A stretch of DNA of 64,000 bases, taken from NCBI RefSeq assembly GCF_006345805.1, contig NC_043023.1, forward strand, positions 15,872,001 to 15,936,000, given 5' to 3'. The notes under the pieces are model-generated. The model ran no database searches. It was given only the letters and a program-made list of their open reading frames with translations, and was not told where the DNA came from. Within the stretch, counting starts at the first letter, position 1; every line of letters starts with the position of its first letter. This document shows, piece by piece, positions 30,386-64,000 of the stretch. The stretch is from Octopus sinensis (lineage: Eukaryota). A program made the position numbers and the translations under genes.

Positions 30386-30424
<39 letters not shown>

Positions 30425-30620: not shown

Positions 30621-30654
<34 letters not shown>

Positions 30655-30778
30655 TTCAAACATATAAGGGATGGCCATAATAGGACATCCGACTCACTAG
30701 AAAGAGCAGTTAAACTCCAAACCACTAATAGTTGTAATTCTGAAATGGAAAGAGAAATAAAAACGTTTACCCTCTCCT

Positions 30779-30858
30779 TTCTGGACTATGCATAGTTTCG
30801 GCAATCTTTTGTAAATAAAATAAATTTATTTACAACTGGCGTTGCCTCTTCAGCAGAA
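30779..30858 (-). ncRNA. Type I hammerhead ribozyme, canonical core
   Basis: Minus strand TTCTG-CTGAAGA-GGCAA...TTGCC-GAAAC-TATGCATA-GTC-CAGAA. Confidence 0.85.
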
Positions 30859-31720: not shown

Positions 31721-31803
31721 CCGATGTTCTCCGGGGGCTGCAAGCTACAGTAACACCCACGCTTAGTGGTTAGCCATATTAAGATGGCTAGAATACCTCA
31801 CAT

Positions 31804-31837
<34 letters not shown>

Positions 31838-32004
31838 ATATATATTATATATATACGGTTAAGTAATTGAGATTCTAGTGAATTCTAAAGAATTCACATG
31901 AATATGGTCCTTAACTAGGATGCACCGGAAATCTATATGGTGTTAACCATACGACAAGTGGGGTGATTACAAATAGGAAAAAAGCAACGAGAATGGATTA
32001 AAAT

Positions 32005-32090
32005 CTCGGTACGATCGTTTCGTACGAGGACATCTTTAATAAGCTACAAAAAATGCAGTGAATACAGATGGCTCGTACTCGTCAGCCGAA
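32005..32090 (-). ncRNA. Type I hammerhead ribozyme, canonical core
   Basis: Minus strand TTCGG-CTGACGA-GTACGAG...CTCGTAC-GAAAC-GATC-GTA-CCGAG. Confidence 0.85.
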
Positions 32091-32212
32091 AAAACATCAG
32101 AGAATTCCCAAACATATATATATATATATATATATAATTATAATAAAGGGTTATTTGCAACAAGTTGCTTAAACCACATACCGAAAATAATAGAAACAGC
32201 AGCCAAATAGGC

Positions 32213-32402
32213 TACTATTACTACAAAAATAAGTCTCCACAAACAACAGTATTTGCAACCCGTATATGGTAAAAGGAAGGAAGGCAACGAAATCACACAG
32301 TCTAATCCAGGAGACCGTGTGATTTCATTGCCTTTCTTCTTTTTACCATATATGGGTTACAAATACTGTTGTTTGTGGAGACTTATTTTTGTAGTAATAG
32401 TA
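32213..32402. repeat. Imperfect hairpin, about 90-bp arms
   Basis: TACTATTACTACAAAAATAAGTCTCC... mirrored by ...GGAGACTTATTTTTGTAGTAATAGTA. Confidence 0.85.
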
Positions 32403-32654
32403 ATGTCTCTCTGGAGCACCGCCTTTAGTCGAGCAAATCGACCCCGGGACTTATTCTTTGTAAGCCCAGTACTTATTCTATCGGTCCCTTTTTGCCGAAC
32501 CGCTAAGTGACGGGGACGTAAACACAGCATCGGTTGTCAAGCAATGCTAGGGGGACAAACACAGACACACAAACACACACATGTATATATAGGACGGGCT
32601 TCTTTCAGTTTCCGTCTACCAAATTGACTCACAAAGCTTTGGTCGGCCCGGGTG

Positions 32655-40866: not shown

Positions 40867-40909
40867 ATGAAATTCACATTACCCATTTCTTTTCTTGTAT
40901 TAAGTTCCT
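40867..40909 (+). CDS. Orphan secreted/GPI protein gene, coding exon 1 (MKFTLPISFLVLSS)
   Basis: T-rich tract and CAG acceptor at 40863, ATCATGA start, T|GTAAGT donor, hydrophobic signal peptide. Confidence 0.8.
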
Positions 40910-40936
40910 GTAAGTTTTTTTATTTTATTTTCTTTC

Positions 40937-41165
40937 TTAATCCTTTTGATACTAACCCGCCTGAAACCGCCTCTGGCTCTGAGTACAAATGTCTGGTTTT
41001 CATAAGTTTTGAATTAAAATCTTCCACCAAACCTTAGTCACAATTTATGTTCCTAACACTAGCTTAATGATAACTAAGTTATTTTACTAAATTCTTTGTT
41101 ATATTTAAAATTAATTGAAAGAAACACAGAGCATCTCAACAGAAATATGGGAACAAAAGGGTTAA
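40937..41165. mobile_element. piggyBac-type MITE (TTAA TSD)
   Basis: TTAA-TCCTTTTG...AAAAGGG-TTAA; same family at 44345-44548 and 44572-44795. Confidence 0.65.
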
Positions 41166-41412
41166 ATCCTTTTTCTTTAACATTTTTTTTCTCGAAATAA
41201 TTGTTTCAAACATCATTTACGTTAACATTGGTGGTTCTTTTTTTCATTTTTGCTTTTATAAATATGTTGTGTTATTTATTTGGTTTTAGCCAATATGGCT
41301 ACAATTGTATTACAACAATGCTTCTATCATCATCATCATCATCATTTTGACAGTGTCGAAACATTTAAGAATCAATTGGTTCTGACAACCAGGATTTTCA
41401 AAGTATATATAC

Positions 41413-41456
<44 letters not shown>

Positions 41457-42046
41457 TCTTTTACATGTTTCAGTCATTTGACTGTGGCCATGCTGGAGCA
41501 CCGCCTTTAGTCAAGCAAATCGACCTCGGGACTTATTCTTTGTAAGACCAGTACTTATTCTATCGGTCTCTTTTGCCGAACCGCTAAGTGACAGGGATGT
41601 AAACACACCAGCATCGGTTGTCAAGCAATGCTAGGGGGACAAACACAGACACACAAACACATATATACATATACATATATACTTCTACTATAGCCTTGGG
41701 CCAACCAAAGCCTTGTGAGTGGATTTGGTAGATGGAAACTGAAAGAAGCCCGTCGTATATATGTATATATATATATATCATCATCATCATCATCGTCGTT
41801 TAACGTCCGTTCTCCATGCTAGCATGGGTTGGACATATATATATGTGTGTGTGTTTGTCCCCCCAACATCGCTTGACACCCAATTCTGGTGTAGTTGCAT
41901 CCCCGTCACTTAGCAGTTCGGCAAAAGAGACAGATAGAATAAGTTCTAGGCTTACAAAGAATAAGTCCTGGGGTTGATTTGCTTGACTAAAGGCGGTGCT
42001 CCAGCATGGCCGCAGTCAAATGACTGAAACAAGTAAAACAGTAGTG

Positions 42047-42081
<35 letters not shown>

Positions 42082-42182
42082 GTGTGTGTGTGTGTATATA
42101 TATATTTGTGTATACATATGTATATATATATGTGTATGTATATATATATTTGTGTATACATATGTATATATATATGTGTGAG

Positions 42183-42221
<39 letters not shown>

Positions 42222-42850
42222 ATATATATATATATTTGTGTATACATATGTATACATATGTGTGTGAGTATATCTATATATATCATCATCATCATCGGTT
42301 GATGTCTGCTTGGATGATTTGACTGAGGTCTGGCGAACCAGATGGCTGCACCAGACTCCAATCTGATCTGGCAGAATTTCTACACCTGGATGCCCTTCCT
42401 AACGCCAACCACTCCGAGAGTGTAGTGGGTGCTTTTACGTGCCACCGGTACGAGGGTCACTCAAGCAGTACTGGCAACGACCATGCTCAAATTGTGCTTT
42501 TTATGTGCCACCTGCACAGGAGCCAGTCCGGCGGCACTGGCAACGACCTCGCTCAAATGTTTTTTCACGTGCCAGTAGTATTTATATGTATATGCATATA
42601 TACTTGTATATATATATGTATACATGATGTGCAACATTTTGGCTTGACATGGCCAGTTTAAATGGTAGATAGTTTTTAACGATTGAACTGAGAACCACAT
42701 TTTCAATAACCTCTCTCGAAAATTCCACAGTATAGAACATGTAACTTCATCTCCTGTTAATTAGTATTTAATTATTGTAAAAGAAATAGTAAATAGTCCT
42801 GTTGATAAAACGTAAAATCTGAAAACGATTTTTTTTTGTCATTTTCACAG

Positions 42851-42919
42851 TAGCTGTAGAAGCAAAAGTCGTGTGGAATGCACATCGAAATGCAAATATA
42901 ACCAAAGGTTCCCAAAGTG
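42851..42919 (+). CDS. Orphan gene coding exon 2 (LAVEAKVVWNAHRNANITKGSQS)
   Basis: TTTTCACAG acceptor, G|GTAAGA donor, 69 nt phase 1-1; completes the signal peptide (AVEA). Confidence 0.8.
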
Positions 42920-43091
42920 GTAAGAAAGTTAATAAACCCTTTTTGAATCCTTTAAATTAGACACTCGCATACATGTGTGTGTATGTAAGTCTCTCTCTGT
43001 CTTTCTCTCTCTCTATATATATATAGAGATTCCTGTTCATCAAACGTAAAATCTGAAATCAGAATTTTTTTTTTTTATTCTTTCACAATAG

Positions 43092-43151
43092 ATGTAGAAG
43101 TCAAACTGGGGCCAGACACAAAAGCAGATGAAACCAAGGATTCCCGAAATG
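43092..43151 (+). CDS. Orphan gene coding exon 3 (DVEVKLGPDTKADETKDSRN), duplicate of exon 2
   Basis: TAG acceptor, G|GTAAGA donor, 60 nt phase 1-1, homologous flanking intron. Confidence 0.7.
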
Positions 43152-43216
43152 GTAAGAAAGTTTATAAACCCTTTTTGAATCCTTTAAATTAGACACTAAC
43201 ATAAATGTGTGTATAT

Positions 43217-43286
<70 letters not shown>

Positions 43287-44061
43287 TAATAAATAAAATA
43301 TATGCATACATACAAACATATATGTACGTACCTAAATCTACATGTATATATACATGCATATATAAATATATATACGTGAGTACAGGACACTACAACTAGA
43401 TGTAGAACTCAACGAGAAACGAAAAAGCAAAAACAAGCATGGAACAGACCGTTTTTTTAACAATGAAAAAACAGAGTACAAGACAACTACACAAGGAAAA
43501 ATCCCCTTCATCAGCTGTCACTAGTTCAACTCCAGCGTGTTTCGAAGGTGAGGACAGAACACGACTCGTCGAACTAGTCCTTCCTGCGAAAGAATTAAAT
43601 AAAATTCCTTTGCAGAGGGGTAAAAACAAGGAAAAAGAATTGTGACAAAAACAGGACGTAAAAACAATACAATTAAAAACAAATACAAAATATATATATA
43701 TATAATGTATGTTTGTAGGTATGCAAAATGGCGTCTTCTTTCTGTCAATCCCTCTATACCAAATCCACTCACTTTGGTTGTCTCTGGGCTATAATTACTA
43801 TTTAATTATTAGAACAGAAATAGTAAATACTAGCACCATGTCATGGTAGCGCTGGGTCATAGTGCTAGTGCATGCATATACACGTGAGTGCTGTCCAAAT
43901 CTGTTAATTACATATAATTATTGTAACAGAAATAAAGGCGGTGCTCCAGCATGGCCGCTGTCAAATGACTGAAACAAGTAAAAAGAGAGAAAAAAAGAGA
44001 GTAAATAGTCCAGTTGATAAAATGTAAAATCTGAAAAGAATTTTTTTTTTCATTTTCACAG

Positions 44062-44136
44062 TAGCTGTAGAAGAATCAACCTCCAGCGTGTATGATATAC
44101 ATCGAAATGCAGATGAAACCAAAGGTTCCCGAAATG
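44062..44136 (+). CDS. Orphan gene coding exon 4 (VAVEESTSSVYDIHRNADETKGSRN), duplicate of exon 2
   Basis: TTTTCACAG acceptor, G|GTAAGA donor, 75 nt phase 1-1. Confidence 0.75.
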
Positions 44137-44232
44137 GTAAGAAAGTTAATAAACCCTTTCTGAATCCTTTAAATTAGACACTCATATAAATGTGTGTGTA
44201 TTTAAGTCTCTCTATCTATCTATCTATCTATC

Positions 44233-44263
<31 letters not shown>

Positions 44264-44571
44264 GATTAATAAATAAAACATAGGAACGCACGCATCCATT
44301 TCTAAGTAAGATTGTTCTTGATATTAATAATGATGCGCACTCTTGACCTTTCTCAGCCTTCATTCTTTCTGGTTTCCTTGTTTTCATAAGTTTTGAATTA
44401 AAATCTTCCACCAAACCTTAGTCACAATTTATGTTCCTAACACTAGCTAAATGGTAACTAAGTTATTTTACTAAATTCTTCGTTATATTTAAAGTAATTG
44501 AAAGAAACACAGAGCATCTTGACAGAAATATGGTAAGAAAAGGGTTAAAATATATAATAGAGAAACAATTC

Positions 44572-44795
44572 TTAACCCTTTTGATACCAACCTGGCTGAA
44601 AGCACCTCTGACCCTGTAGTACAAATGTCTTGTTTTCATAAGTTTTGAATTAAAATCTTCCACCAAACCTTAGTCACAATTTATGTTCCTAACACTAGCT
44701 TAATGATAACTAAGTTATTTTACTAAATTCTTTGTCATATTTAAAAGTAATTGAAAGAAACACAGCATCTCAAAATATAGTAACGAAAGGGTTAA
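44572..44795. mobile_element. piggyBac-type MITE (TTAA TSD)
   Basis: TTAA-CCCTTT...AAAGGG-TTAA. Confidence 0.7.
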
Positions 44796-45610
44796 GGAAG
44801 GTTAAAGAGCTAGAAATACAAATCGGAGGGGCCACTAGAGCTGTACTTTGCTTGTAGTGTTGAAATGGCTGCTGGGGGTCAATTTAGGATTTTGTTGCTA
44901 AAATTTCTGTTTAATTAATTCCTTATAGTTTTATTATACTATAAGGTGCAGGAGGGGCTGTGTGGAAAGTAGCTTGGTTACCAACCACATGGTTCCAGGT
45001 TCAGTCCCACTGCGTGGCACCTTGGGCAAGTATCTTCTACTATAGCTTCAGGCTGACCAAAGCCTTGTGAGTGGATTTGGTAGACGGAAACTGAAAAGAA
45101 GCCCATCGTATATATATATACGAAATCAGCCGAAATTGCTACGATGATCCAGTTCTTGACTGAAGATTGAAGGCTTCGAATGTCCCGTCCGTGTTTTTTG
45201 TGTCGTCTTCTAAGTGTTTTGCGTTCTTGCCCCAGTTTGTATTTTTCTACATATAATAATAAAATATATATATATGTGTGTGTGTGTTTGTGTGTCTATG
45301 TTTGTCACCCCGATATCGCTTAACAACCGATGCTGGTGTGTTTACGTCCCCGTAACTTAGCGGTTCAGCAAAAAGAGACCAATAGAATAAGTCCTGGGGT
45401 CGATTAGCTCGACTAAAAGCGGTGCTCCAGCATGGCCACAGTCAAATGACTGAAAAGAGTAAAAGAGAATCAGAGGGTCCACTAGAGCTGTACTTTGCTT
45501 CTAGTGTTGAAATGGCTATTGGGGGCCAATTTAGGATTTTGTTGCTAAAATTTGTTTAATTGCTTATAGTTTTATAAAAGGCAATATATCCAAATATTTT
45601 GTTCTTATAG

Positions 45611-45667
45611 GTGGTGAAAGCAGAACTGTTACAAGTAGTGATGGATCTTCTACTACTATCAGACCTG
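45611..45667 (+). CDS. Orphan gene coding exon 5 (GGESRTVTSSDGSSTTIRP)
   Basis: TTTTGTTCTTATAG acceptor, G|GTAAGT donor, 57 nt phase 1-1. Confidence 0.75.
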
Positions 45668-45849
45668 GTAAGTGGGTTTCCTATTACATTTAGCGTTTGT
45701 GGCTAGAAACCTCATTCGTAATTCTTTCTTCAATACCACCCAATCTGTAAAAAAAAGGCATCTGAAAACCTTAGAAATACCCTACAGTCTAGATGTATTA
45801 CAAAGGTCAGCATTACTTGGGCCTGCATGCATATTGTTTAAAGTACTGT

Positions 45850-46200
45850 CTGTCTGAGGTTCTAGCTGAGACTTGACAAACAGTCCTGCTCGTGTCAGAG
45901 CATAAACAGCCACCAGCCTGAGGACACCCCTGTCACTACTGTTCATGTCCAGTATCACCAACTTAACTTGAGGGTCTACGAAGATAGGCCCCTCTGGAAA
46001 AACACTGCAGTTTCACCTTGTATTCCTGGTTGACATGGAGATAAATAGATCTTGGAAATGGCCAGAGAGTCTGGTTTCACTGATGGTCACGACATCAACA
46101 CTTAGTGACCTGAGGTCATTGAGTAGATGGCCCTGTTTCCAAGACAACCCAGGCCACATGCATTTATACTGCCTATTCCGAACAAGGCCATATCGGGTTA
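45850..46200 (-). mobile_element. L1/Tx1-like AP-endonuclease relic
   Basis: WKQGHLLNDLRSLSVDVVTISETRL; homologous to 53293-53555. Confidence 0.7.
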
Positions 46201-46489
46201 GACTACGGAAGAAGAAAAGGTTACTCACAGTACTTTTGTGGGGATGGATGTTCCATCCTCATTGGTATATATGGATGTTTCAAGGCAGCAAGCTGGCAGA
46301 GACGTTAGCACGGCAGGCGAAATGCTTAGTGGTATTTCGTCCGCCGCTGCGGTCTGAGTTCAAATTCCGCCGAGGTCGACTTTGCATTTCATCCTTTCGG
46401 GGTTGATAAATTAAGTACCAGTTATGCACTTATCCGTTTGTCCCCTCTGTGTTTAGCCCCTTGTGGGTAGTAAAGAAATAGGTATATAC

Positions 46490-46888
46490 TCTCTTTACTT
46501 GTTTCAGTCATTTGACTGAGGCCATGCTGGAGCACCGCCTTTAGTCAAGCAAATCGACCTCGGGACTTATTCTTTGTAAGCCCAGTACTTATTCTATCGG
46601 TCTCTTTTGCTGAACCGCTAAGTGACAGGGACATAAACACACCAGCATCGGTTGTCAAGCAATGCTAGGGAGACAAACACAGACACACAAACACATACTT
46701 ACATATATATACATACATATATACGACGGGCTTCTCTCAGTTTCCTTTTACCAAATCCACTCACAAGGCATTGGTCGGCCCGGGGCTATAGCAGAAGACA
46801 CTTGCTCAAGATACCACGCAGTGGGACTGAACCCGGAACCATGTGGTTGGTTAGCAAGCTACTTAACACACAGCCACTCCTGCGCCTA
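46490..46888 (-). mobile_element. SINE family A
   Basis: Reverse complement of the family A sequence. Confidence 0.85.
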
Positions 46889-48042
46889 TATATGGATGTT
46901 TCTTTATATAGTCTTTTATTGACGTCTCTTCCGAAGGACCCTACTCCGTCAGGAAATTTAGTTTTTATGGTATTGAGTCTTGTGATGTTTGGATGACCCC
47001 TATGTGTGTGTGATGTCTGTATGGTTATGTGTGTGACCCCTTGGGTCTTTATTGTTTGTGTTTATTGCTCTGTAGTTCAGAACGTTTGACCTTTGCTGGT
47101 GTTGAGACATTTGGGAGTTGTGTGTGTGAATTGGGTTGTGTGCTTGTGAGGGTGGTGTCGACGGTAGTGATTGGGGTGATGTTTGTTATTGAAGGTACTA
47201 GTGTGGGTGCTGTTGGTGGAAATATTTGTCAATTTGTTTTCAAAGGTGTTTCCTACCTGTCAGATTTTTGTGTTGATATTTCACCTGTTGACATTTTGCC
47301 ATTCAGACTCTTTGTCAGCACCATCCCCCTGTGAAGGACACGCCTGGCTGCCCTAATAGGTGAGGGACAAATTTGTAGGAATTTCTGTTGTTGTTTTTGC
47401 TGCTGTTTGCTGTGTGGAAACCCTAAATGTTGGTGAATTCTTTGTTCTGTTGGCTACTGTTGTTGTTGTTGTTCTTGTTGTTGCTTGATAGATATTGCTT
47501 TTCCAGCTCTAGTGGTCACCTGCCTCTGCTCTTGTTGTGGTTGTTGTTAAGCAATATCTTCAATCAGCAACCTCATCATATCGTTTACTGTACAATGACT
47601 ATAATAGCCCTGATGCAGTACCAGGCAGTGGCTCTGATGGCTTCTGATCTTAACTGATTGGAAGTGTTATCATGTACACTGTTTTGTCTTGGTATAAAAG
47701 ATGGGCTACAGCAAATATTCTGCTCAATACCACAGATTTGCTTGTCAGTTGTTTGACCGTAACCAGTTGAGCATGTCCCTTAGTGGCTGACGATATGTGC
47801 ATCTCTGATCACGAGCAGAAGTAGTGGGGGAGCATCATAGCCATGTGTTGAGAGGGATTCTTTGGGGTTTGAATAGTTCACCTCTGGAAACATGGGTGGT
47901 TCTTTCAACATCCTTAAACAACCCTTATTCAGGGACCGTTTGAGCAGGAGGGGCTACTCAACCTGAAGAAAATTCTAACTGGGCCCCACCTGCAAGGTCA
48001 TATGCTGTTTATCTTGATATGAGATCACCATGTCCTAATCAT

Positions 48043-48382
48043 GAAAATAATTGCAGCGTGGAAGGTGTTTGTAAGCCATTTAAGAAACACACAAAAGCCG
48101 TTCGATTCACTTCAACATTTAAGTTTAATTTGTCAAAATATTTTCGTCCCTTTAAGACCGCAACCTGTTTACTGACAAAAATCCGTGCTGCATCTTGTCA
48201 GTGAACAGGTGGCGGTCTTAAAGCGAGGAAAATATTTTGACAAATTAAACTTAAATGTTGAAGTGAATCGAACGGATTTTATGTGTTTCTTAAATGGCTT
48301 ATTAACACCTTCCACGCTGCAATTGTTTTCATTCCAGTACACGATCTCAGATCAAATCACTTGCTATGCAAGTACATCTCCG
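48043..48382. repeat. Inverted repeat, about 135-bp arms
   Basis: TTGCAGCGTGGAAGGTGTT...CTGACAA mirrored by TTGTCAG...AACACCTTCCACGCTGCAA. Confidence 0.85.
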
Positions 48383-49544
48383 TAATATTTTTCTAATATT
48401 TAAACAAAAATCACAGTTTGTAACTGAACAAGTTCAAAAATTTCTTTTGAATTAGTTTTTTTTTTTTTGTTTTGTTTGACTGAATGGATTAGTTAGCTTC
48501 ATTCTCAAGGATCAACTATCTTTTTAACTATTTAGTTGCTATAGAATGGATTTGCATTCTCTAGTTTCTTGTTTGAGAAAGAAGAATTCAAAGAGAAAAA
48601 TATTATCAAGAATAAAAATTGACAGAAACCACTGTCTTTACCAATGCTAGATAATCCTTCTATCAGATGCAGGATAATTTACTAATTATTATTATTAATT
48701 ATTTACTAATTCATTTTTATCATGAGATTTTGGTTTTGGTTAATTTACTGATTATTCATTTTTATCATAAGATTTTGGTTAATTTATTAATTATAAATAA
48801 TTTACTAATTATTCATTTTTATCATGAGATTTGAGTTTTGGTTAATTTACTTTCACCATAGCCCTTAATATTTTCTTGGGTGTTTTATCCCCTCCCAATT
48901 CTTTATACCAGCCATTTTCATTGTTATGTTAAAATTTTGAGCCACCAAATTTAATTACACAAGAATGCCAGGAAATCCTTATACAACACTTGTTACGAAT
49001 TTAATAAATAAGAACGTTTCAGTTTTTTGTTTGAATAATGAGGAAATTAATTATATTTAAATAATAAGAAAAATAAATGCGCCCTTTTTAAAGACTAGCC
49101 AGGCTCATGGGCCCAGTTTCCCGATTTCTATGGCATGTATTCCCCAGCTGGACGGGACGCCAGTCCATCACAGCGTTACTCATTTTTGCCAGCTGAGGGG
49201 ACTGGTGCAACGTGGAATGAAGTGTTTTGCTCAAGAACACAATGCGTCGCCCAGTCCAGGAATCGAAACCACAATTTTACAATCATAGTGCTGACACCCT
49301 AACCCAGAAGCCTCCACTATTTAAATAATGTGTAAATCTATATGCTGCCCCTGGTAAACGATGGACTGATCCATTTTTGTGCTAAAAAAGTCAGTCCCCT
49401 TTGTTAATGCTTCGTAACCTTTCTAAATAATGGACTGATCTGAAGGAGAACATTTAATGAATTAGACATAGTAGTCCAAGATATTTGTGTCTGTCGACCC
49501 TTTTTCTTACCATGTTCCTGTTTAAATATATTGCCTTTGTTTAA

Positions 49545-49921
49545 GGTGGCGAGCTGGCAGAAACGTTAGCACGCCGGGCGAAATGCTTAGCGGTATTTCG
49601 TCTGCCGTTACGTTCTGGGTTCAAATTCCGCCGAGGTCGACTTTGCCTTTCATCCTTTCGGGGCCGATAAATTAAGTACCAGTTATGCACTGGGTCGACA
49701 TAATCGACTTAATCCGTTTGTCTGTCCCCTCTGTGTTTAGCCCCTTGTGGGTAGTAAAGAAATAGGTATTTCGTCTGCCGCTACGTTCTGAGTTCAAATT
49801 CCGCCGAGGTCGACTTTGCCTTTCATCCTTTCGGGGTCGATAAAATAAGTACCAGTTACACACTGGGGTCGACATAATCCGTTTGTCCCCTCTGTGTTTA
49901 GCCCCTTGTGGGTAGTAAAGG
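49545..49921 (+). mobile_element. SINE family B with tandemly duplicated 3' part
   Basis: GGTATTTCGTCTGCCG...GTAGTAAAG occurs twice. Confidence 0.8.
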
Positions 49922-50223
49922 AATATATATTGCCTTTGTTTCAATAAATTTTGGAAACAATAAAGAATTTAGGGGAACAATCTTGCCCTTACTAAGCTAG
50001 TGTTTGCAACACAAGTTTATTTGAAGTTTTGATGGAAAGTTTTACTTTAATGGCGGTGCCCCAGCATGGCCACAGCTCGTGAGCTGAAACTAGATGAAAT
50101 AAAAAATATTTAGATATCTTTAAAACAAGGTACTATAGAAACAAAGGCAGTTTTAAACAGGTTGGTATTACTATTTTTTATTAAAAACAAAAGGTATATG
50201 TGTTTATTTTTTGTCTTTTGCAG

Positions 50224-50333
50224 ATATGGGAACAACAAAAGAGCCTGGATCATACGCAGCAGTAACCAGCATGCCCAACTATGCCGTAGTGGTACTTTGC
50301 GTACTTGGTGCTTTGAAGCATTTCTTTTTATAA
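50224..50333 (+). CDS. Orphan gene terminal coding exon (DMGTTKEPGSYAAVTSMPNYAVVVLCVLGALKHFFL*)
   Basis: TTTTTTGTCTTTTGCAG acceptor, phase 1, small residues then a hydrophobic tail to TAA, GPI-signal-like. Confidence 0.75.
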
Positions 50334-52938: not shown

Positions 52939-53086
52939 CACAATACACCACCAGACTTTACCATACCAACACACAACACACCACCAGACTTTACCATACC
53001 AACACACAACACACCACCAGACTTTACCATACCAACACACAACACACCACCAGACTTTACCATACCAACACACAACACACCACCAG
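52939..53086 (+). repeat. 33-bp minisatellite (~4.5 copies) in a probable LINE ORF1 remnant
   Basis: CACAACACACCACCAGACTTTACCATACCAACA, encoding THNTPPDFTIP. Confidence 0.85.
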
Positions 53087-53292
53087 CACACATTCTTACA
53101 ATAAAGATAAACAAAACTATATATAATGAAATCAAGGAGAAATTCCCTAACGATGTCGGGTCGCTAGGGAGAAATTTCTCCCAAAAACTATATAAAAACC
53201 TGGTGGAAACACCCGTGCAAAAGCACAAGGGAGCCACCCCACCAAACAACAACAGTAAGTAGAGCCTTTTTCTCCTTCTGAACCTTTAAAAC

Positions 53293-53555
53293 ATGGCAAA
53301 ACTCAGAATCGGTTGCTTAAATGTGAGAGGCCTTGGGTCACCTTGGAAACAGGGTCACCTGTGAAACGACCTGAGGTTTCATAGCGTGGATGTAGCAGCC
53401 ATTAGTGAGACCAGGCTCTCCGACCCACAGGAACTCGCGGCCCTTTTCGGCGGATACGAGATTTTTCTATCTCCGTGTCGGCTGGGAGCGGGCGGTGGTG
53501 GTACTGCGGTGTTGTTTCGGAAGGGCCTGGATTTGTAAATAAGGACAGTCTTCCT
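53293..53555 (+). mobile_element. L1/Tx1-like ORF2 N-terminus (AP endonuclease), with stops
   Basis: MAKLRIGCLNVRGL...VDVAAISETRL...GGGTAVLFRK. Confidence 0.8.
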
Positions 53556-53899
53556 TATTAGCTCGACTAAAAGCGGTGCTCCAGCATGGCCGCAGTCAAA
53601 TGACTGAAAAGAGTAAAAGTGAATCAGAGGGTTCACTAGAGCTGTACTTTGCTTCTAGTGTTGAAATGGCTGCTGGGGGCCAATTTAGGATTTTGTTGCT
53701 AAAATTTCTGTTTAACTAATTGGAAGTATCACAAAGTATGGTGCCTTCGGCTGATGAAAGCGGAAGGTAGGAAAACTGGCAACAGGAGAACTTGGGTGAA
53801 GTTAAGTCTAACGACGCCAAAGGTGGCTACTCCTGCGAGATGGCAGCTAAGTCGATAGCAGCAGGAGACGAAAGGGCGCAAACTGGAAGGCAAGAGAGA

Positions 53900-54165
53900 G
53901 CGTCAGCAGGAACGTTCTTTTTCCAGGTATGTGTCAAATGTTACTAGTGAATCCAGGTGCCGGAAAGCACGAGGTGAGAGTTTGTCCGTTTTTGAACCCA
54001 GGGCAAACGTAAGGGGCTTGTGATCCGTATAGATCACAAAATCTCGCCCTTCAAGTTGATGCTGGAAATGAGGAACCGATAGATCGCTAGGAGCTCACGA
54101 TCAAAGGTGCTGTATCAGCTGGTTGCAGTTGGTGGAAAAAGAAAGCCAGAGGTCGAATACGATCA
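53900..54165 (-). mobile_element. Gypsy RNase H fragment (opposite strand to the adjacent RT)
   Basis: Minus strand RPLAFF...YSTFDRELLAIY...LEGRDFVIYTDHKPLTFA. Confidence 0.85.
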
Positions 54166-54169
54166 TCCT

Positions 54170-54995
54170 CTCTGGCCGTTCAACGGGAAAAGCCTACCCA
54201 CTCGACCCTCCATTTTATCACCACCACTGGGCCACCTGTATTTTCGCGCCCACGCCGCCTTGCGCCTGACCGACTAAAAGCGGCTAGGGCCGAGTTTGAG
54301 CACATGCTTCAACTTGGCCTTATACGCCCCTCCACCAGCCCATAGGCGTCTCCCCTTCATTTGGCGCGAAAGGGCGAGTCTGATTTTCGCCCGGTTGGAG
54401 ACTATCGACGCCTCAATGCCGTAATAGCCGACAGATATCCAATCAGAAATCTACAGGACTTTACGGCAAATCTCCATGGTTGTACCATTTTTTCGAAGGT
54501 CGACCTTATACGCACGTACCATCAAATACCGGTCAACCCAGCCGACGTTCAAAAAACTGCGATCACTACCCCCTTTGGGTGTTGAGTTTTTGTATATGAG
54601 TTTCAGTTTGCGGAATGCTACTAGCACTTTCCAGCGTTTCATTGATGAGGTTGTCCGCGGTCTTGATTTTGTGCTTGCCTATGTCGATGATATACTCATT
54701 GCGAGCGACACACGTGAAAATCATCTCCAGCACCTTTCTCAGCGTCTTCGCGCTTATAGTATATGTATAAATCCCGACAAGTGTGTTTTCGGACGCTCTT
54801 CCCTAGATTTTCTAGGCCATCATATTGATTCGAGTGGAATCAGCCCTCTGTCGTAAAAAGTCAATGCCATTCAACGCATCGCACCCCCCACTTCATTGCA
54901 CCAGCTCAGGCATTATCTAGGGATGATCAATTTCTACAGACGTTTTATTCCCGGTTGTGCAGATAAGCTACTACCTTTCACCAGGCTGTTAAAGT
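54170..54995 (+). mobile_element. Gypsy reverse transcriptase fragment, pseudogenised
   Basis: GDYRRLN, FSKVDL, KTAITTPFG, FQRFID, AYVDDILI, FLGH, GMINFYRRFIP. Confidence 0.9.
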
Positions 54996-54999
54996 ACAC

Positions 55000-56200
55000 T
55001 GCGGGCCACACCATCTCACGCCACCAATGCCAGCATTATATTGATGTCTCTCCACTGTTTTCATAATTTGGCTGAACCGAATATGAACGAAGTCTCAACA
55101 AGCAGGAAAAAACACATTTCCCAGCAATGTAACTGTTATGTTATAGATATCATTACAGATCCTAGCCCAGACGCCACCTATGCGACTTTCAAGGCAGAAA
55201 TTCGACGCAACACGCAGTCGGAAGAAAGTAAATTCAATGAGCTGATGGCAGATGAGCAGCCAGGGGACAGGACCCCGTCGCAATTCTTGCGTCGCTTGCG
55301 CAAATTAAGTGGGAACTCCGCAGACACGCCCTGCTTCGTAAAATGACTGAAAAGAGTAAAAGAGAATCAGAGGGTCCACTACAGCTGTACTTCACTTCTA
55401 GTGTTGAAATGGCTGCTGGGGGTCAATTTAGGATTTTGTGGCTAAAATTTGTTTAATTAATTGCTTATAGTTTTATTATAGGCAATATATCCAAATATTT
55501 TGCTCTTAATGGTGGTGAAAGTGGAACTATTACAAGTAGTGGTAGATCTACTATCAGACCTTTCATCCTGTTACAATTGGTGACCCCTGAACATAAAACG
55601 AACATGCGAGCCAACAGATGTACACAGCAACTCGCCCAGGTTTTTATACACTACTGTTTGTGAATAATTTCACTGTCGTATTCACAACTACTATACAACC
55701 TGCGGGCCAGACCATCTCACGCCACCAATATATTGATGTGTCTCCACTGTTTTCATAAGTTGGCTGAACCGAATACAAATGAAGTCTCAACAAGCAGGAA
55801 AAAACACATTTTCCAGCAATATAACTTATGTTATAGATCTCATTACAGATCCTAGCCCAGACGCCACCTATGCGACTGTCAAGGCAGAAATTCGACGCAA
55901 CACGCGGTCGGAAGAAAGTAAATTCAACGAGCTGATGGCAGATGAGCAGCCAGGGGACAGGACCCCGTCACAATTCTTGAGTCGCTTGCGCGAATTAAGC
56001 AGGAGCTCTGCAGACGCGCCTCTGCTTCGTATAATATTCTTCTCCAGGTTGCCTGCCAACCTTCAGACAATTTTGGCTACAGCCCTTGAGTCCAACACTG
56101 TGGACCAAATTGCCACGATGGCAGATAAAATTTTGGAATTTTCTGGCCAGCCAACGTCGCGTGGCGTGTGCGTTTGCACTGAGATCCCTTTGACAGCCTG
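55000..56200 (+). mobile_element. Two Gypsy gag fragments with an LTR-end/PBS between them
   Basis: PDATYAT.KAE...GDRTPSQFL.RLR twice; CTGTTACA|ATTGGTGACCCC at 55568-55587. Confidence 0.8.
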
Positions 56201-56242
56201 TTTCAGCCTCTTCTGTCACATGACACTATATCAGACTAAATA

Positions 56243-56778
56243 CAGAGTGTCCCCAAAAAATGTATACACTTGCTGCAACAGTCTGTCATGCCAAGCATTA
56301 GAGAGGACTTTGAACAGGAAGAGTTTTATTTCCAGCAAGATGGGGCACCTCCACACTACCATCGCAATGTTAGATCCTTTCTTGATGGGATCTTGCCAAA
56401 CAGGTGGATTGGACAGAGAGGTTTTGTCGAATACCATCCACGTTCACCAGACCTCACACCACTAGACTTCTTTTTATGGGGATACCTAAAGGACAAAGTC
56501 TACGCACAGAAACCTGCAACAGTCGTTCAATTGAGGGCAACCATTGAACATGAATGTACGAATATCCCAAGGGAATTGTTCCATGATGTGTGCCATTCCA
56601 TCGCATCGCGTTGTCAGCAGTGTCTGGAGCAGAACGGACATCAGTTTGAGAACATGCGATAACAAGACAATAGAATGATATTTGTAAATTCTTTTACATG
56701 TTGAAAATTATTCGAATTATAATAAACCCCAAATTTACAATTATTTAAGGTGTGTATACATTTTTTTGGGACACCCTG
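56243..56778 (+). mobile_element. Internally deleted DD41D (rosa/Visitor-type) Tc1/mariner element
   Basis: TA-flanked TIRs CAG.GTGTCCC.AAAAAATGTATACAC; 41 residues between the Asp of QQDGA and the Asp of PLDFFLWG. Confidence 0.88.
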
Positions 56779-56873
56779 TAGATGTACTGACACGATGCAT
56801 AGACGAGCTATATCGCTTGCGCGAATTAAGCGGGAACTCCGCAGGCGCGCCTCTGCTTCGTAAAATGAGTAAA

Positions 56874-57173
56874 AGAGAATAGGCAATATATCCAAATATT
56901 TTGCTTTTAATGGTGGTGAAAGTGGAACTATTACAAGTAGTGGTGAATTTTCTACTACTATCAGACCTTTCTATCAGAGAATAGGCAATATATCCAAATA
57001 TTTTGCTTTTAATGGTGGTGAAAGTGGAACTATTACAAGTAGTGGTGAATTTTCTACTACTATCAGACCTTTCTATCAGAGAATAGGCAATATATCCAAA
57101 TATTTTGCTTTTAATGGTAGTGAAAGTGGAACTATTACAAGTAGTGGTGAATTTTCTACTACTATCAGACCTT
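56874..57173 (+). repeat. 102-bp tandem repeat x3 derived from exon 5 of the orphan gene and its acceptor region
   Basis: AGGCAATATATCCAAATATTTTG at 56881, 56983 and 57085; similar to 45579-45666. Confidence 0.88.
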
Positions 57174-57264
57174 TCATCCTGTTACAATTGGTGACCCCTG
57201 AACTTAAAACGAACATGCAAGCCAACAGACGTACACAGCAACTCGCCCAGGTTTTTATACACTA

Positions 57265-58145
57265 CTGCCAGGAACTAAGATTGTCACAGATTCTTGGAGA
57301 GCGTATAATAGCCTACCAAACCATTTGACTGTGAACCAGTGTCACCTTTGTGGATACCAACAATGCCTCAATCGACACAAACACCGTGGAAGGGATGTGG
57401 AGTCACATGTAATCAAATTATCGGAGGATGCATGGAACGTTCCAGAATTTTCTTCCAAAATATTTCCATCAAATTTGTAGAGATCGACAAATTCAAGTTC
57501 ATGCACAGGAAATACCATCGCGGTAGTCATCGAGTCGGGCACTAGGTTCTTGGAATGGTGGAATGGGAAAGTCCGAGATGTGTTTAGTTCCTGTGGAAAA
57601 CAGAAGTCCAGCAACATTGTTGCCTATTATTAGCTGCCATGTTCTGCCAGGAACTAAGATTGTCACAGATTCCTGGGGAGCGTATAATAGCCTACCAAAC
57701 CATTTGACTGTGAACCAGTGTCACCTTTGTGGATCCCAGCAGTGCCTCAATCCATAAAAACACTGTGGAAGGGATGTGGAATCACATGAAATCAAATTTT
57801 CGGAGGATGCACGGAACGTTCCAGAATTTTCTTCCAAAATATTTCCATGAATTTTGTAGAGATCGATGAATCCAAGTTCATGCACAGGAAATACCATCGC
57901 GGTAGGTATCTTAGGAGACTATCCGCAGGGGTCTGGGTGGCAGCGGACCCAAACCACTTAATGTCAAAAGCTGTTTTCAGCCTGGAGACTTAATCAGCAA
58001 AAAATCTGGTGCTCCCAGATTTTCTAAGAATGGCTGGGACAAGGTATCTTGAGCGATGTGGAGTCACGTGAAATCAAATTATCGGAGGATGCACGGAACG
58101 TTCCAGAATATTCTTCCAAAATATTTACATGAATTTTGTTTTACT
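57265..58145 (+). mobile_element. Merlin (IS1595/ISXO2-like) transposase fragments in tandem
   Basis: VEIDESKF.HRKYHRG, IVTDSWGAY, HLTVN, NTVEGMW, YLHEF. Confidence 0.85.
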
Positions 58146-58277
58146 TCAAAAAGATTTCGTACAGAAGGAGACAGGAAAACGAATTGGTTACACAAACCTA
58201 ATAACGATAACTCCATGCGAGCAATTTCACATCCTACGTACGATTCCGTAATGAAGAAAAGGATTGGAATATGAAGA

Positions 58278-58425
58278 ATGGAAAACTCTGAATAAACCTT
58301 TCAAAGAAAAATTTGAAAATATGCCTTGGGGATACTTCGACAACAACAAATGCTACATGGAGAGAGACGTCTCTCTAAAAATATTCAGATCCACACTCAT
58401 GACCCAGGACATCATTGAATGAACA
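58278..58425 (+). other. Putative parvoviral capsid fragment (MPWGYFDNNKCYM)
   Basis: Resembles the parvovirus VP motif TPWGYFDFN; short match only. Confidence 0.5.
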
Positions 58426-58461
58426 TTTGTCTCAACAGTATGGGAATTAAGGCAGATTCTC

Positions 58462-58930
58462 CATAGCAAATGGCAGGACAGGATCGCTAACACAGAGGTT
58501 TTGGACAGTGTCAACATCATCTGTGAGAGGCGTCTTCAGTGGCTAGGCCATGTCAGCCGAATGGATGCAGGACGGATTGCAAAGGACCTACTGTACGGAC
58601 AGCTAGCGGAAAGCTCCAGAACAATGGGACGGCCCAAACTGCGCTTCAAGGATATTTGCAAGAAGGACCTAAAGCTATGCCAGAGCAACACCCAAACATG
58701 GGAATCCACCGCTGCCGACAGAGGCACCTGGCGACACAGTGTCAAACTAAAGAGAACCAGGCGAAAGGAGCAGCAACCACAGCTCTCGTCCCCTTTCACT
58801 TGCACCAGATGTGGTAGGGACTGCCACTCGATGATTGGTCTGCACAGCCACACCAGGAAGTGCAGATAGACCCACCACCTTTTCTGAGCTACACCATTGT
58901 CTCTTGAGATAGACGGATGCCGGATGCCAA
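58462..58930 (+). mobile_element. RTE LINE 3' fragment
   Basis: WQDRIANTEVL, RLQWLGHVSRM, GRPKLRFKD and a C-terminal CxxC..H..H finger. Confidence 0.88.
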
Positions 58931-58975
58931 AGATGGGAATTACTAACACAAAAAAAACCTAAAAGAAATCTTCAG

Positions 58976-59222
58976 GTATTAAGGGGCATTCCTAACTCTG
59001 GCAAATCAATGATAGCAAGAAGTATCGCAGATATGTTTACACACGTATCAACCATTCAAGGGACAACTAGTTCCCCCATTCCAGAACCTAGTAAATGTTG
59101 AAATTGGTTTAATAGAAGAACCAAACTTTACACTGGAAACACTACAAACTTTTAAAAAACTAGCTGAAGGCGTCGACACTGAAGTCGCAATTAAATTCAA
59201 ACGAGACCAAATTGTCCACAGG
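58976..59222 (+). pseudogene. Endogenous parvoviral NS1 SF3-helicase fragment, copy A
   Basis: VLRGIPNSGKSMIARS...IGLIEEP...FKKLAEG; +1 frameshift in a C run near 59075. Confidence 0.85.
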
Positions 59223-59251
59223 TTCTTCAATGTGGTGCCGAAACACTGGAA

Positions 59252-59920
59252 TATGTAGAGATCAACGAATCCAAGTTCATGCACAGGAAATACCATCGCG
59301 GTAGTCATCGAGAAGGGCACTAGGTTCTTGGAATGGTGGAATGGGAAAGTCCGAGATGTGTTTAGTTCCTGTGGAAAACAGAAGTCCAGCAACATTGTTG
59401 CCTATTATTAGCTGCCATGTTCTGCCAGGAACTAAGATTGTCACAGATTCCTGGGGAGCGTATAATAGCCTACCAAACCATTTGACTGTGAACCAGTGTC
59501 ACCTTTGTGGATCCCAACAGTGCCTCAATCCATAAAAACACAGTGGAAGGGATGTGGAGTCACGGGAAATCAAATTTTCGGAGGATGCATGGAACGTTCC
59601 AGAATTTTCTTCCAAAATATTTACATGAATTTTGCAGAGATCGACAAATTCAAGTTCATGCACAGGAAATACCATCGCGGTAGGTATCTTAGGAGACTAT
59701 CCGCAGGGGTTTGGGTGGCAGCGGACCCAAACCACTTAATGTCAAAAGCTGTTTTGAGCCTGGGGACTCAATCAGTAAAAAATCTGGTGCTCCCAGATTT
59801 TCTAAGAATGGCTGGGACAAGGTATCTTGAGGGATGTGAAGTCACGTGAAACCAAATTATCGGAGGATGCACGGAACATTCCAGAATTTTCTTCCAAAAT
59901 ATTTACATGAACTTTGTTTT
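59252..59920 (+). mobile_element. Merlin transposase fragments (duplicate of the 57476-58145 block)
   Basis: Colinear with an offset of about 1778 bp. Confidence 0.85.
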
Positions 59921-60049
59921 ACTTCAAAAAGATTTCGTACAGAAGGAGACAGGAAAGCGCATTGGTTACACAAACCTAATAACGATAACTTCATGCGAGC
60001 AATTTCACATCCTACGTACGATTCTGTAATGAAGAAAAGGATTGGAATG

Positions 60050-60290
60050 TGAAGAATCCAAAACTGAAGCTGATAGATCACAAGATAGTGGTGTAGGAGA
60101 AAGTCAAACTATGGGTGATCCACATGTAGGACCAGCACCTGGTGGGTCTGTGGCTATGGCAACAGGAGATCAACCACCAGACATAGGTGATATAAATCCA
60201 ATTGTATCTAAAAAATTTTCCACGGACATTCGTGCATTACGTGAACTGTAGCGATCTTCCTACCCTTAAAGCATATTATAAAAAACACAA
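60050..60290 (+). other. Putative parvoviral capsid N-terminal fragment
   Basis: Gly/Pro-rich MGDPHVGPAPGGSVAMATG then, after a 1-nt shift, KKFSRTFVHYVN, resembling the first VP beta strand. Confidence 0.45.
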
Positions 60291-60327
60291 TGGGGATACC
60301 TAAAGGACAAAGTCTACGCACAGAAAC

Positions 60328-61064
60328 TGAATAAGAAACTCCCAAAGTGTAATCTACTTGTATTAAGGGGCTTGCCAAATACTGGCAAATCTATGGTAGC
60401 TAGAAGTATTGCTGAGATGTTCACTCATGTCAGCACGATTCAGGGGACAAGGAGTTTCCCATTTCAAAACTTGATTAATGTCGAAATAGGTTTAATCGAA
60501 GAACCGAATTTCACTTTAGAAACACTTCAGACATTCAAAAAGCTTGCTGAAGGGACTGACACTGAAGTTTCTGTAAAATTCAAGCCAGACCAGGTTGTCC
60601 ACAGAACACCATTGATCATTACTTCAAACAACAAATTCGACAGCAACGCACCATTACACGAAAGATATGCTTTCATCACGAGATACACAGAATATCTTTT
60701 CCAAAAAACATCTCCTTTCCTTCAATATGTTAAGAAAAAAATTAATCCTATTATATGGAATGTATTATTTTATGAACATTGTTTTTCTTCTTTAATTAAT
60801 GACGATGGTTCCTCATCGGATGACAATTTATGTCACATTCTATGAAGAATATGAAAAGCTCACCAATCGAGAGACGCCGACAAAGAAAACAAGCGACCAG
60901 GTGGATTTCGGACTCTGTCTGGTTCTGGAAGCGGGTCAACCGTTAGAGTCTTCTCCGAAACAGACGAAGAAGAACAAGTCCCAGAAAGAAGGAAAAAGTT
61001 CAGAAAGCTGAGATACACACCAAATTACGAGGCTGATAGTGAACTATCAGATTCCGAACTGTAA
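60328..61064 (+). pseudogene. Endogenous parvoviral NS1 C-terminal half, copy B
   Basis: Walker A GLPNTGKS, Walker B IGLIEEP, B' FKKLAEG..V..KFK, motif C PLIITSN; same frame resumes after two TGA with RRKKFRK and an acidic end. Confidence 0.9.
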
Positions 61065-61520
61065 TTCTTTTGCATTTATCATTTATTTCTATTTTTCATT
61101 ATCAATTATATAATTTGTAATCTGGAAATGTATTCAGAACTTTTCAAATTAATTATATTTTTCTTGAAAATGTATTTGTATTTTAAATCTTTAAATAAAA
61201 ATGATTAAAAAATTTTTTATTTAAATTTAAATAAAAATTCAAAAAAAAAAAAAGAAGCGTGCCAAAAGGGGGAGACCAACCGGCCGAGAGGTCAGTTGGT
61301 CCCCTCCCCCCCAATTTTTTTTTTATTGAAGAGGATTGCACTGCTTCAAAGAAGTCACCTGGTCGGGAGGGAGGTAGATTATGTCATATATATTGATATT
61401 CATTAAATTTTTTTTTTCATTACTACATTTTACGAAAAACCCAGAATTTAATAATTGTTAAACATTTTCCTCTTTTCAGGTGAGCCAAAAATTTATGCAG
61501 TTAACCTAAATTTATTAATA

Positions 61521-62525
61521 ATGGCTAAAGGAAAGATGTTGACAGATAGTGAAATTGGGTGAAATTGTTAAATTACTTGCTGCAAAGAAGTCTACATTAG
61601 AAATTTCAAAAATTTTGAAACGAGATCATCGAACTGTGAAACGTTTCGTCATTGACAGCAAAGATGGAAGAAAAAAAGCACAAAAGTGTCAGACCAAAGG
61701 TGACTTCACCACGAGATTTGAGAAAAATCAAGAGGAGTGTGCTAGCAAACCCACACAGCACAAGCAAAGCTATTTTCGACCATGCAGGAGTGTCTGACAT
61801 CTCTAAAAGGACCCGAAATCGGATTTTGAAACAAATAGCGGACCAGAGAACACCGACAAAATGTCCTCCTTTGAGTGATATCAACTGTCAGATGCGACTA
61901 GCATGGGCCACTAAATATTTGAAAACCAATTTTCAAAATGTTCTCTGGACTGACGAGGCTAGAGCAACCCTCGACGGTCCCGACGGTTGGACCAAGTGAT
62001 GGCTTCTTAAAGGCAATAGCCCACGCTTGCGATTCAGACGTCAACAGGGAGGAGGGATTTGGGCTGGGATTATTGGAAGTGAGATTGTTGGTCCTTTTCT
62101 TGTCCCTGAAGGTGTCAAAATGAATTGTGAACTACTGCGAGTTTTTGGAAGAGAATTTATTGCCCTGGTTGAATTCACAAAATGATGCTGTCAACCAGAA
62201 TCTCATTGTTCAACAAGACAATGCCCCAAGCCATGCTTCTCGGTTCACAAAAGCTTGGCTTTCAGACCAGGGGATCTCTGGTGAACGTCTGATGGACTGG
62301 CCACCTCAGAGCCCGGATCTGAATCCGATAGAGAACCTCTGGTCGATTCTGAAGAGGAAGGTTTACGAAAAAGGGCATCAATTCAACAGTAAAAAAGACA
62401 TTTGGGAGAGGATCAAGGAGGTATCTTCTGAGATCACACCTCAACAAGTGCATAAATTAACATCCTCTGTTGATAGGAGGCTGATGGATTTGATTAAGAA
62501 TGGAGGAAAGCGTATCAAGGGTTAA
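61521..62525 (+). pseudogene. Tc1-like DD37E (TRT-type) transposase, frameshifted
   Basis: WTDEARATLDGPDG; 37 residues between the Asp of QQDNA and the Glu of PIENLW. Confidence 0.88.
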
Positions 62526-62707
62526 ATTGTTTTATAAATTTGTATTGTTTTGTTAATTGTTATTTGAGCAATAACTGTTGTTTTCTTGTAATATGTTATC
62601 AATATATGGTACTATTATCATAATGACACAATGTTTCAAATTATATTATGTTTAAAAATGTTATTATTTCGAATAAATGAGTCTTGCAAACTCTTTTGGC
62701 CCATATT

Positions 62708-63106
62708 TACTCTTTTACTTGTTTCAGTCAGTTGACTGCGGCCATGCTGGAGCACCGCCTTTTAATCGAGCAATTCGACCCCCGGGACTTATCCTTTTGT
62801 AAGCCCAGTACTTATTCTATCGGTCTCTTTTTCCGAACCGCTAAGTAACGGGGACATAAACACACCAGCATCGGTTGTCAAGCAATGCTAGGGGGACAAA
62901 CACAGACACACACACGCATATATATATATATATATATACATATATACGACGGGCTTCTTTCAGTTTCCGTCTACCAAATCCACTCACAAGGCTTTGGTCG
63001 GCCCGAGGCTATAGTAGAGGACATTTGCCCAAGATGCCACGCAGTGGGATTGAACCCGGAACCATGTGGTTGGTAAGCAAACTACTTACCACACAGCCAC
63101 TTCCTG
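62708..63106 (-). mobile_element. SINE family A
   Basis: Reverse complement of the family A sequence. Confidence 0.85.
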
Positions 63107-63259
63107 AAATTTTTTAAAAATCCATATTTCCCCCCCAGAATATGATTATTTGGTTTCCGTCTCTAGGAATTTACTTTATATATTTGCATATCGAACAATG
63201 AGTAACATAGTTATTTATATTGGAAAATATTGAAGCCTAAATTTATCAATATGGAATGG

Positions 63260-63633
63260 AAGCACTGTCGGTTATGACGACGAGGGTTCCGGTTGATCTA
63301 AATCAACAGAACAGCCTGCTCGTGAAATTAACGTGTAAGTGGCTGAGCACTCCACAGACACGCGTACCCTTAACGTAGTTCTCGGGGATATTCAGCGTGA
63401 CACAGAGTGTGACAAGGCCGGCCCTTTGAAATACAGGTACAACAGAAACAGGAAGAGTGAGAGAAAGTTGTGGTGAAAGAGTACAGCAGGGATCACCACC
63501 ATCCCTGCCGGAGCCTCGTGGGGCTTTAGGTGTTTTCGCTCAATAAACACTCACAACGCCCGGTCTGGGAATCGAAACCGCAATCCTATGACCACGAGTC
63601 CGCTGCCCTAACCACTGGGCCATTGCGCCTCCA
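63260..63633 (-). mobile_element. tRNA-derived SINE, family C
   Basis: Minus-strand GGCGCAATGGCCCAGTGGTTAGGGCAGC...GGTTTCGATTCCC head. Confidence 0.75.
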
Positions 63634-64000
63634 CAAAATTTATCAATATATACAATTTGCAAACACTTTTGACCCCATTTTTAAATGTTTTTCTCATTAT
63701 TATTTCTGGTGTCAGAGATGTTCTTTGATCTCATTTCTGAAATTAGCGATTTTTCTGGATGAATTTCTGCTTTTGTATCAAAACTGCAGGGAAAAACTTG
63801 TTTCTGATAAAAATCAAGATAAATTCCAAAGGGGCAATACATCTATTTCTGAGACTGATTTCTGGTGGCAAAATTTAAAGGAACGACCTCCAACCAAAGT
63901 GAATTGAAATTTGGAATTCAACACAAACCTTGCAATGGGATCAAACCTTACGTCAACCAATACAAGTCATGTAAGAAGCACTAGAATCGGTCAGATGTTT

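Follow-up and report, generated by a model that had tools for sequence, protein, structure and literature searches.

PIWI-interacting RNA (piRNA) clusters that lie downstream of genes and are fed by read-through transcription (piC-DoGs) have been described in mouse, human and hamster (PMC11615739), and the core piRNA clusters of mosquitoes are likewise made by read-through and trap endogenous viral elements (EVEs; bioRxiv 10.1101/2022.08.22.504762), as set out in the portions of the two reports available to us. Here we describe a one-way mosaic of transposon and parvovirus fragments in the 2.72-Gb genome of Octopus sinensis, located within a window of 64,000 bp (C27:15,872,001-15,936,000; C-numbers denote contigs and positions beyond 64,000 are window-equivalent). 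The mosaic, at 53620-62702, is a real feature. Its composition and setting suggest, with a probability of roughly 0.68, that it makes up the body of a piRNA cluster of one-strand type, supplied with transcript by read-through from the neighbouring gene HAUS7. The octopus islands to which it belongs likely represent a kind already known, resembling piC-DoG or mosquito core clusters, and the cephalopod instance appears to be new.

As far as the accessible part of PMC11615739 goes, the likeness to piC-DoGs lies in transposon fragments that are crowded together and antisense to the host gene upstream of them, spread over tens of kilobases and with no need for a promoter of their own. The mammalian clusters capture L1 and endogenous retroviruses, whereas the octopus islands, known here from DNA sequence, mix many families with parvovirus and exclude short interspersed elements (SINEs). 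Mosquito core clusters, in the available text of that preprint, begin where an expressed gene ends and are enriched in antisense viral fragments, which is the arrangement predicted here; the octopus viral pieces, however, come from a DNA parvovirus (its NS1 and capsid, or VP, genes), and most mosquito clusters start at distance 0, whereas the octopus core lies 9 kb from the HAUS7 stop. Drosophila flamenco and flam-like loci also show a one-strand bias visible from sequence alone, but in the sections of PMC10643416 at hand they are Gypsy-specific and have their own promoter, while the octopus locus is mixed-family and spans 9-18 kb. A densovirus EVE of Diaphorina citri yields piRNAs according to the accessible part of PMC7527727, making a parvoviral EVE a possible piRNA source, although that case is a single insect EVE and ours comprises several mollusc loci. 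Octopus piRNA-sized loci show ping-pong and phasing, and molluscs are reported to have abundant piRNAs and no pathway dedicated to endogenous small interfering RNAs (siRNAs), in the available portion of PMC12479628; that of PMC6128900 gives piRNA clusters for snail and oyster only. PMC13282606 does not mention piRNA and PMC11067994 does not mention octopus. No such cephalopod islands were described in the literature on mollusc or cephalopod piRNA clusters with EVEs or read-through that we searched, in which coverage was thin for subscription papers and much octopus small-RNA work.

We masked 164 kb around the window using six SINE copies from the window together with a microsatellite pattern. 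The core at 53620-62702 (9,083 bp) is the longest gap free of both, against a runner-up of 5,563 bp that consists of a single RTE element; every 10 kb of background holds, on average, 19 microsatellites and 6.9 SINE blocks. A stretch of 11 kb at 21381-32410 is SINE-free too, yet rich in microsatellite and satellite. Coding debris of transposons and viruses covers 72% of the core region, and coding bases across 53200-62710 amount to 6,420 bp on the plus strand and 446 bp on the minus strand. Matches from Pfam, tblastn and dispersed copies together tile nearly all of the mosaic (LINE, long interspersed element; ORF, open reading frame; TIR, terminal inverted repeat):

53051-53556, plus: LINE ORF1 end and endonuclease start (87% nucleotide identity to L198; tblastn match to an endonuclease-reverse transcriptase ORF)
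53721-54174, minus: Gypsy RNase H with its linker, inverted in place, the sole minus coding piece (PF17917; ~90% to dispersed copies matching the reverse transcriptase)
54175-55000, plus: Gypsy reverse transcriptase (PF00078; 90-95% to the 39 dispersed copies listed)
54999-56236, plus: gag piece, twice, of a more distant Gypsy family, with a leader and a primer-site-like start near 55560 (72-79% to other copies)
55478-55561, plus: copy of host exon 45610-45666 (sequence match to the exon)
56243-56778, plus: DD41D element, internally deleted, TIRs present at both ends, flanked by a TA target duplication (96-97% to dispersed copies; D-D spacing 41)
56874-57175, plus: host exon copies, three in tandem, 102 bp each (match to exon 45610-45666)
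57266-58140, plus: Merlin transposase pieces (homologues match PF12762)
57913-58049, plus: LINE ORF1 piece within the Merlin stretch
58134-58443, plus: parvovirus NS1, piece of the N-terminal half (tblastn)
58423-58930, plus: RTE LINE 3' end
58948-59222, plus: NS1 helicase piece A (76% nucleotide identity to piece B)
59250-60065, plus: local duplicate (816 bp) of 57472-58287, 96% identical
59741-59827, plus: LINE ORF1 piece
60066-60261, plus: parvovirus VP piece (75% amino-acid identity to a 522-residue, PLA2-bearing VP of C12)
60290-60328, plus: 39-bp DD41D patch inside the viral part (100% to 56476-56513 and to dispersed copies)
60328-61127, plus: NS1 piece B, comprising helicase and C-terminus, with an A-rich tail behind it (PF01057, E 3e-14; 87% nucleotide identity to the C10 copy)
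61410-63676, plus: Tc1 DD37E lacking ~110 bp at its 5' end (94-97% to 6 near-full dispersed copies; spacing 37)

We take the leftmost LINE piece to be Tx1/L1-like. The minus RNase H and the plus reverse transcriptase beside it belong to one Gypsy family, the RNase H having been inverted in place, and the Tc1 element is interrupted by SINEs at 62703-63106 and 63251-63636. Right of the core, four further plus pieces (a DD37D mariner, an RTE 3' end, a CR1-like 3' end and a pogo-like piece) extend out to ~69.9 kb. An initial annotation made from the letters of this stretch had noticed the near-absence of SINEs and microsatellites and had named Gypsy reverse transcriptase, RNase H and gag, DD41D, Merlin, RTE and DD37E, all of which Pfam, D-D spacings and homologues bear out. 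It had also seen NS1 twice, which is correct, with N-terminal NS1 pieces in addition. Among the pieces it called capsid-like, 60066-60261 stands; a capsid reading of 55478-55561 and 56874-57175 is ruled out by their match to an exon of the gene to the left. The RNase H is, as it stated, the only minus coding piece, but it does not form the left edge, as the plus LINE piece at 53051-53556 lies further left. DD41D, listed there as a mere fragment, is a whole internally deleted element, and neither the two LINE ORF1 pieces at 57913-58049 and 59741-59827 nor the four pieces beyond the core had been recorded.

Local duplication in the mosaic includes one 816-bp copy and the 102-bp unit in three copies. 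With duplicates collapsed by hand and Gypsy counted once, 9 of 10 independent elements lie on the plus strand (p 0.021); addition of the four pieces at 66-70 kb raises this to 13/14 (p 0.0018), out to 71.6 kb. The identities of the pieces to their relatives span 66-97%, pointing to different arrival times. At C27:7.27-7.30 Mb, 8.6 Mb distant, lies a paralogous block that has the left block in common with the window locus and matches its right flank as far as 71.8 kb. It is without DD41D, NS1, RTE and Tc1, an empty TA marking the place of DD41D; it carries several other LINE ORF1 and ORF2 pieces. All 10 of its blocks have the orientation of the mosaic and it has its own SINE-free gap of 10,172 bp. 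Given that the flanks are shared and the fragments differ but run in one direction, both paralogues have kept collecting fragments one way.

We then asked what surrounds NS1 elsewhere. Genome searches, which give lower bounds, returned at least ten NS1 loci including this one, and 7 of the 10 examined are SINE-poor one-way islands of 9-95 kb. Besides C27 these are C10 (1 SINE block in 45 kb; 14/17 coding blocks on the majority strand), C12 (7 in 90 kb; 29/31), C16 (0 in 45 kb; 17/19), C19a (0 in 35 kb; 9/9), C14 (5 in 45 kb; 21/21) and C29 (2 in 45 kb; 16/16), and NS1 lies on the majority strand in each of these six. Blocks were called with a library of ~50 natural ORFs taken partly from C10, C12 and C16 and including none from C19a, C14 or C29, six shadow ORFs of L172 having been removed before the final counts; the limits of each island were judged visually from how dense SINEs are. 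The C19a, C14 and C29 islands were found prospectively, as 3 of 5 loci selected solely for NS1. Strand-blind Pfam scans (104 and 114 ORFs) agree, with 9 minus and 1 plus matches at C12, 11 minus and 1 plus at C10, and 12 plus and 0 minus at C16; one of the nine minus matches at C12 is a QRICH1-like domain. LINE 5' ends, Tc1/mariner, Merlin, piggyBac, Helitron, Penelope-like elements and parvovirus co-occur in the islands.

Coding cover in the seven islands is 18-72%, against 1-14% in control regions. The initial annotation had proposed a comparison of transposon orientation with the genome background: background regions hold 44 plus and 31 minus blocks (p 0.17), a total that includes 15 plus and 0 minus blocks from a single gene region on C4. 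Because that region is one-way without being an island, orientation bias alone is not diagnostic; density, family diversity and SINE loss together distinguish the islands. Local duplication alone, which the annotation had offered as a refutation, fails as an explanation given the co-orientation of independent elements and a paralogue that gained other fragments in the same orientation. Its reading as a uni-strand piRNA/EVE cluster thus gains support at the sequence level from replicate loci, from HAUS7 pointing in and from the exclusion of duplication on its own. Of the models that it named, flamenco and mosquito EVE clusters, flamenco is the less close match, as the locus is small and the bias, instead of being specific to Gypsy, spans LINEs, DNA transposons, Helitrons and virus; a read-through cluster downstream of a gene fits better.

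The mosaic occupies part of the 21-kb space between two convergent genes. HAUS7 (PF06694; PDB HAUS7 E 6e-13) lies on the minus strand at C27:15,943,617-15,977,870 (window-equivalent 71,617-105,870) and is directed into the mosaic, with its stop at 71,617, 9 kb from the core edge, so that the mosaic pieces are antisense to it. On the other side is LOC115225255, a small signal-peptide gene (110-135 residues) on the plus strand at 40867-50330, whose stop lies 3 kb from the core. Both genes match O. sinensis protein records at 100%. The last HAUS7 exon has four other matches in the genome, three of them non-processed partial copies and one processed. Debris behind the three non-processed 3'-end copies is co-oriented (10/10, 4/4 and 5/5 blocks), and the processed, intron-less copy at C1:20,996 kb has no island, its surroundings being SINE-rich with 5 plus and 2 minus blocks. 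Since the HAUS7 paralogues have portions of the left block with them as well, they cannot alone fix the transcribed strand. A search with the HAUS7 exon in Atlas gave no match.

A gene pointing antisense to the debris was found at all five resolvable loci: HAUS7 here, Pol-eta (plus) ending at C12:57,457,895 beside a minus island, DONSON (minus) reaching C16:40,751.6 kb beside a plus island, a FAM69-domain gene (plus) ending near C19:42,566.1 kb at the C19a island, and an FKBP-TPR gene (plus; C29:12,987-13,001 kb) ending near C29:13,001.2 kb and facing the C29 island. The last may be FKBP6/shutdown, itself a piRNA factor. Eight flanking genes were seen at the five loci and every one is directed into its island; at three of the loci both neighbours are, which weakens the strand call. 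The opposite-side gene is a GTPase at C19a and, presumably, a FABP-like gene at C29, a label that Pfam did not confirm. No gene turned up in exon scans beyond the far edge of the C12 and C16 islands, and this breaks the tie toward antisense; at both loci the island lies cleanly antisense behind the 3' end of a gene.

We propose that in Piwi-expressing cells the polymerase would pass the HAUS7 poly(A) site, and that the long read-through RNA would be cut into phased antisense piRNAs. Antisense insertions would be kept by selection, since they would silence their active family or virus, and deletions with local duplications would trim and compact the inserted fragments. SINEs and simple repeats would be purged, since piRNAs against them would strike host RNAs. 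The genome holds 23 Piwi-domain matches, the domain being shared with Argonautes.

Several observations weigh against a HAUS7-fed cluster. The plus-gene stop at 50330 is nearer to the core than that of HAUS7, the 9-kb gap between core and HAUS7 holds several SINEs, and the three partial HAUS7 copies have no HAUS7 promoter in the stretches examined. The C27, C19a and C29 islands lie between convergent genes, an arrangement in which one of the two neighbours is bound to be antisense; C10 borders an assembly gap (its upstream gene was not found), and the nearest gene to C14 is ~90 kb off, across satellite and a gap. The predicted precursor strand shows no shortage of AATAAA, with 163 seen against 122.5 expected in five cores, 8 of them in this core, and 11 more in the HAUS7-side gap; the asymmetry of poly(A) and splice motifs gave no indication of which strand is transcribed. 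NS1 occurs outside islands at C5 (8 minus and 9 plus blocks) and C19b (6/6), and C1425 is mixed (5/5). Because some blocks of an island are local duplicates, p-values computed over blocks make these look more independent than they are.

The orientation could instead be that of an ordinary transcribed tail, whether a read-through zone, an intron or a long 3' UTR, from which insertions in sense are eliminated for the poly(A) or splice signals they bring and which yields no piRNAs. The SINE-rich C4 gene region has 15/15 antisense blocks (partly duplicates) and no island, and in the available part of PMC11615739 transposon content behind mouse genes does not generally track read-through. We nevertheless consider this account unlikely, as it leaves unexplained the dense coding cover of the seven islands, the loss of SINEs and microsatellites and the placement of seven of ten NS1 loci in islands. 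The pieces could instead derive from the sense strand, as mRNA copies made by a reverse transcriptase that switched templates, or lie within plus-strand read-through from the left gene, and the nearby plus-gene stop, the short patch junctions (the 39-bp DD41D patch and the host exon copies), the Tc1 without its 5' end and the A-rich tail after NS1 all speak for such an origin. DD41D, however, arrived by cut-and-paste, as judged by its TA duplication and the empty site in the paralogue; the pieces differ in age, the only adjacent gene found at C12 and C16 is antisense, and C4 copies of the left plus gene have no island, so that we regard a sense-strand origin as quite improbable. A neutral graveyard built by local duplication and chance has in its favour that such duplications exist and that the window was chosen after the fact. 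This seems very improbable indeed, given that the bias persists with duplicates collapsed, recurs in a paralogue with other fragments and recurred in three of five loci chosen for NS1 alone.

If the proposed HAUS7-fed cluster is real, read-through piRNA traps, shown in mosquitoes and mammals, would operate in molluscs too, implying a general or repeatedly evolved design. The analysis offers seven precise loci with a predicted transcribed strand, minus here and at C16 and plus at C10, C12, C14, C19a and C29, and a candidate sequence-only signature for clusters in SINE-rich genomes, namely SINE-free one-way islands behind gene ends. Given that molluscs have abundant piRNAs and are reported to lack a dedicated endogenous siRNA pathway (PMC12479628, in the part available), EVE-derived piRNAs are a candidate antiviral memory. 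A broader and more doubtful proposal, which we advance tentatively, is that piRNA traps in gene tails serve cephalopods as a heritable memory against viruses and transposons. Pieces of parvovirus might be selectively kept antisense behind genes of replication or cell division (HAUS7, Pol-eta, DONSON, FKBP6/shutdown-like), the traps might spread by duplicating with the last exon, and SINEs might be excluded against self-targeting. Such traps would provide antiviral silencing to a phylum that is reported to be without a dedicated siRNA pathway.

The viral pieces document a family of octopus parvoviruses, one that we did not find described in the literature searched. The SF3 helicase of NS1 matches PF01057 above cut-off, and the VP to which the window piece is 75% identical, that of C12, matches PF08398, the window piece itself falling outside the PLA2 part. 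NS1 pieces A and B are only 76% alike and so have separate sources. The NS1 insertion at C10:97,294 kb shares 98-99% identity with a protein record from O. vulgaris and is thus probably older than that species split. In three insertions (C12:57,497 kb, C12:57,540 kb and C16:40,712 kb) capsid sequence is found immediately upstream of NS1 in the same orientation, opposite to the order usual in parvoviruses. The stretch 61255-61410 is not supported as a parvovirus terminal hairpin: its fold is no better than that of shuffles (z -1.08) and it has no match at other NS1 loci.

Among young families common to different islands, the DD37D mariner in the 66.2-69.9 kb region is 96% identical to one in C19a, the pogo-like piece there is 95% identical to one in C12, and a Tc1 copy also lies within C19a. 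Ankyrin-repeat and RING fragments occur in or beside islands on the transposon strand (C14:52,365 kb; C29:13,023 kb and 13,060-13,062 kb). The SINE-free part of C14 at 52.275-52.32 Mb is satellite. The SINE-free stretch at C27:19,051-19,062 kb, behind a partial HAUS7 copy, consists mostly of a mariner-like fragment repeated in tandem over 11 kb; it was rejected as a third mosaic and counted only as co-oriented debris. A Ras/Rab-family gene on the plus strand (C27:7,200-7,245 kb) ends ~25 kb before the paralogous mosaic, in the direction that gives antisense.

The mosaic contains four copies of an exon of the left plus gene, and any piRNAs made from the minus strand would run antisense to this family of genes. 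The O. vulgaris model P0040 fuses a leucine-rich-repeat adhesion G-protein-coupled receptor with this gene's exons, probably an annotation fusion. Between core and HAUS7 (62.7-70.3 kb) the main SINE matches are 6/6 in one orientation. C2H2 zinc-finger gene arrays (L016, L018-L020, L056-L057) flank the window and the C4 paralogues. Elsewhere in the window, a 488-bp satellite at 25895-28891 is also present at C27:7.293 Mb, and an unbroken RTE reverse-transcriptase frame of 1,015 amino acids occupies 11466-14513 on the minus strand.

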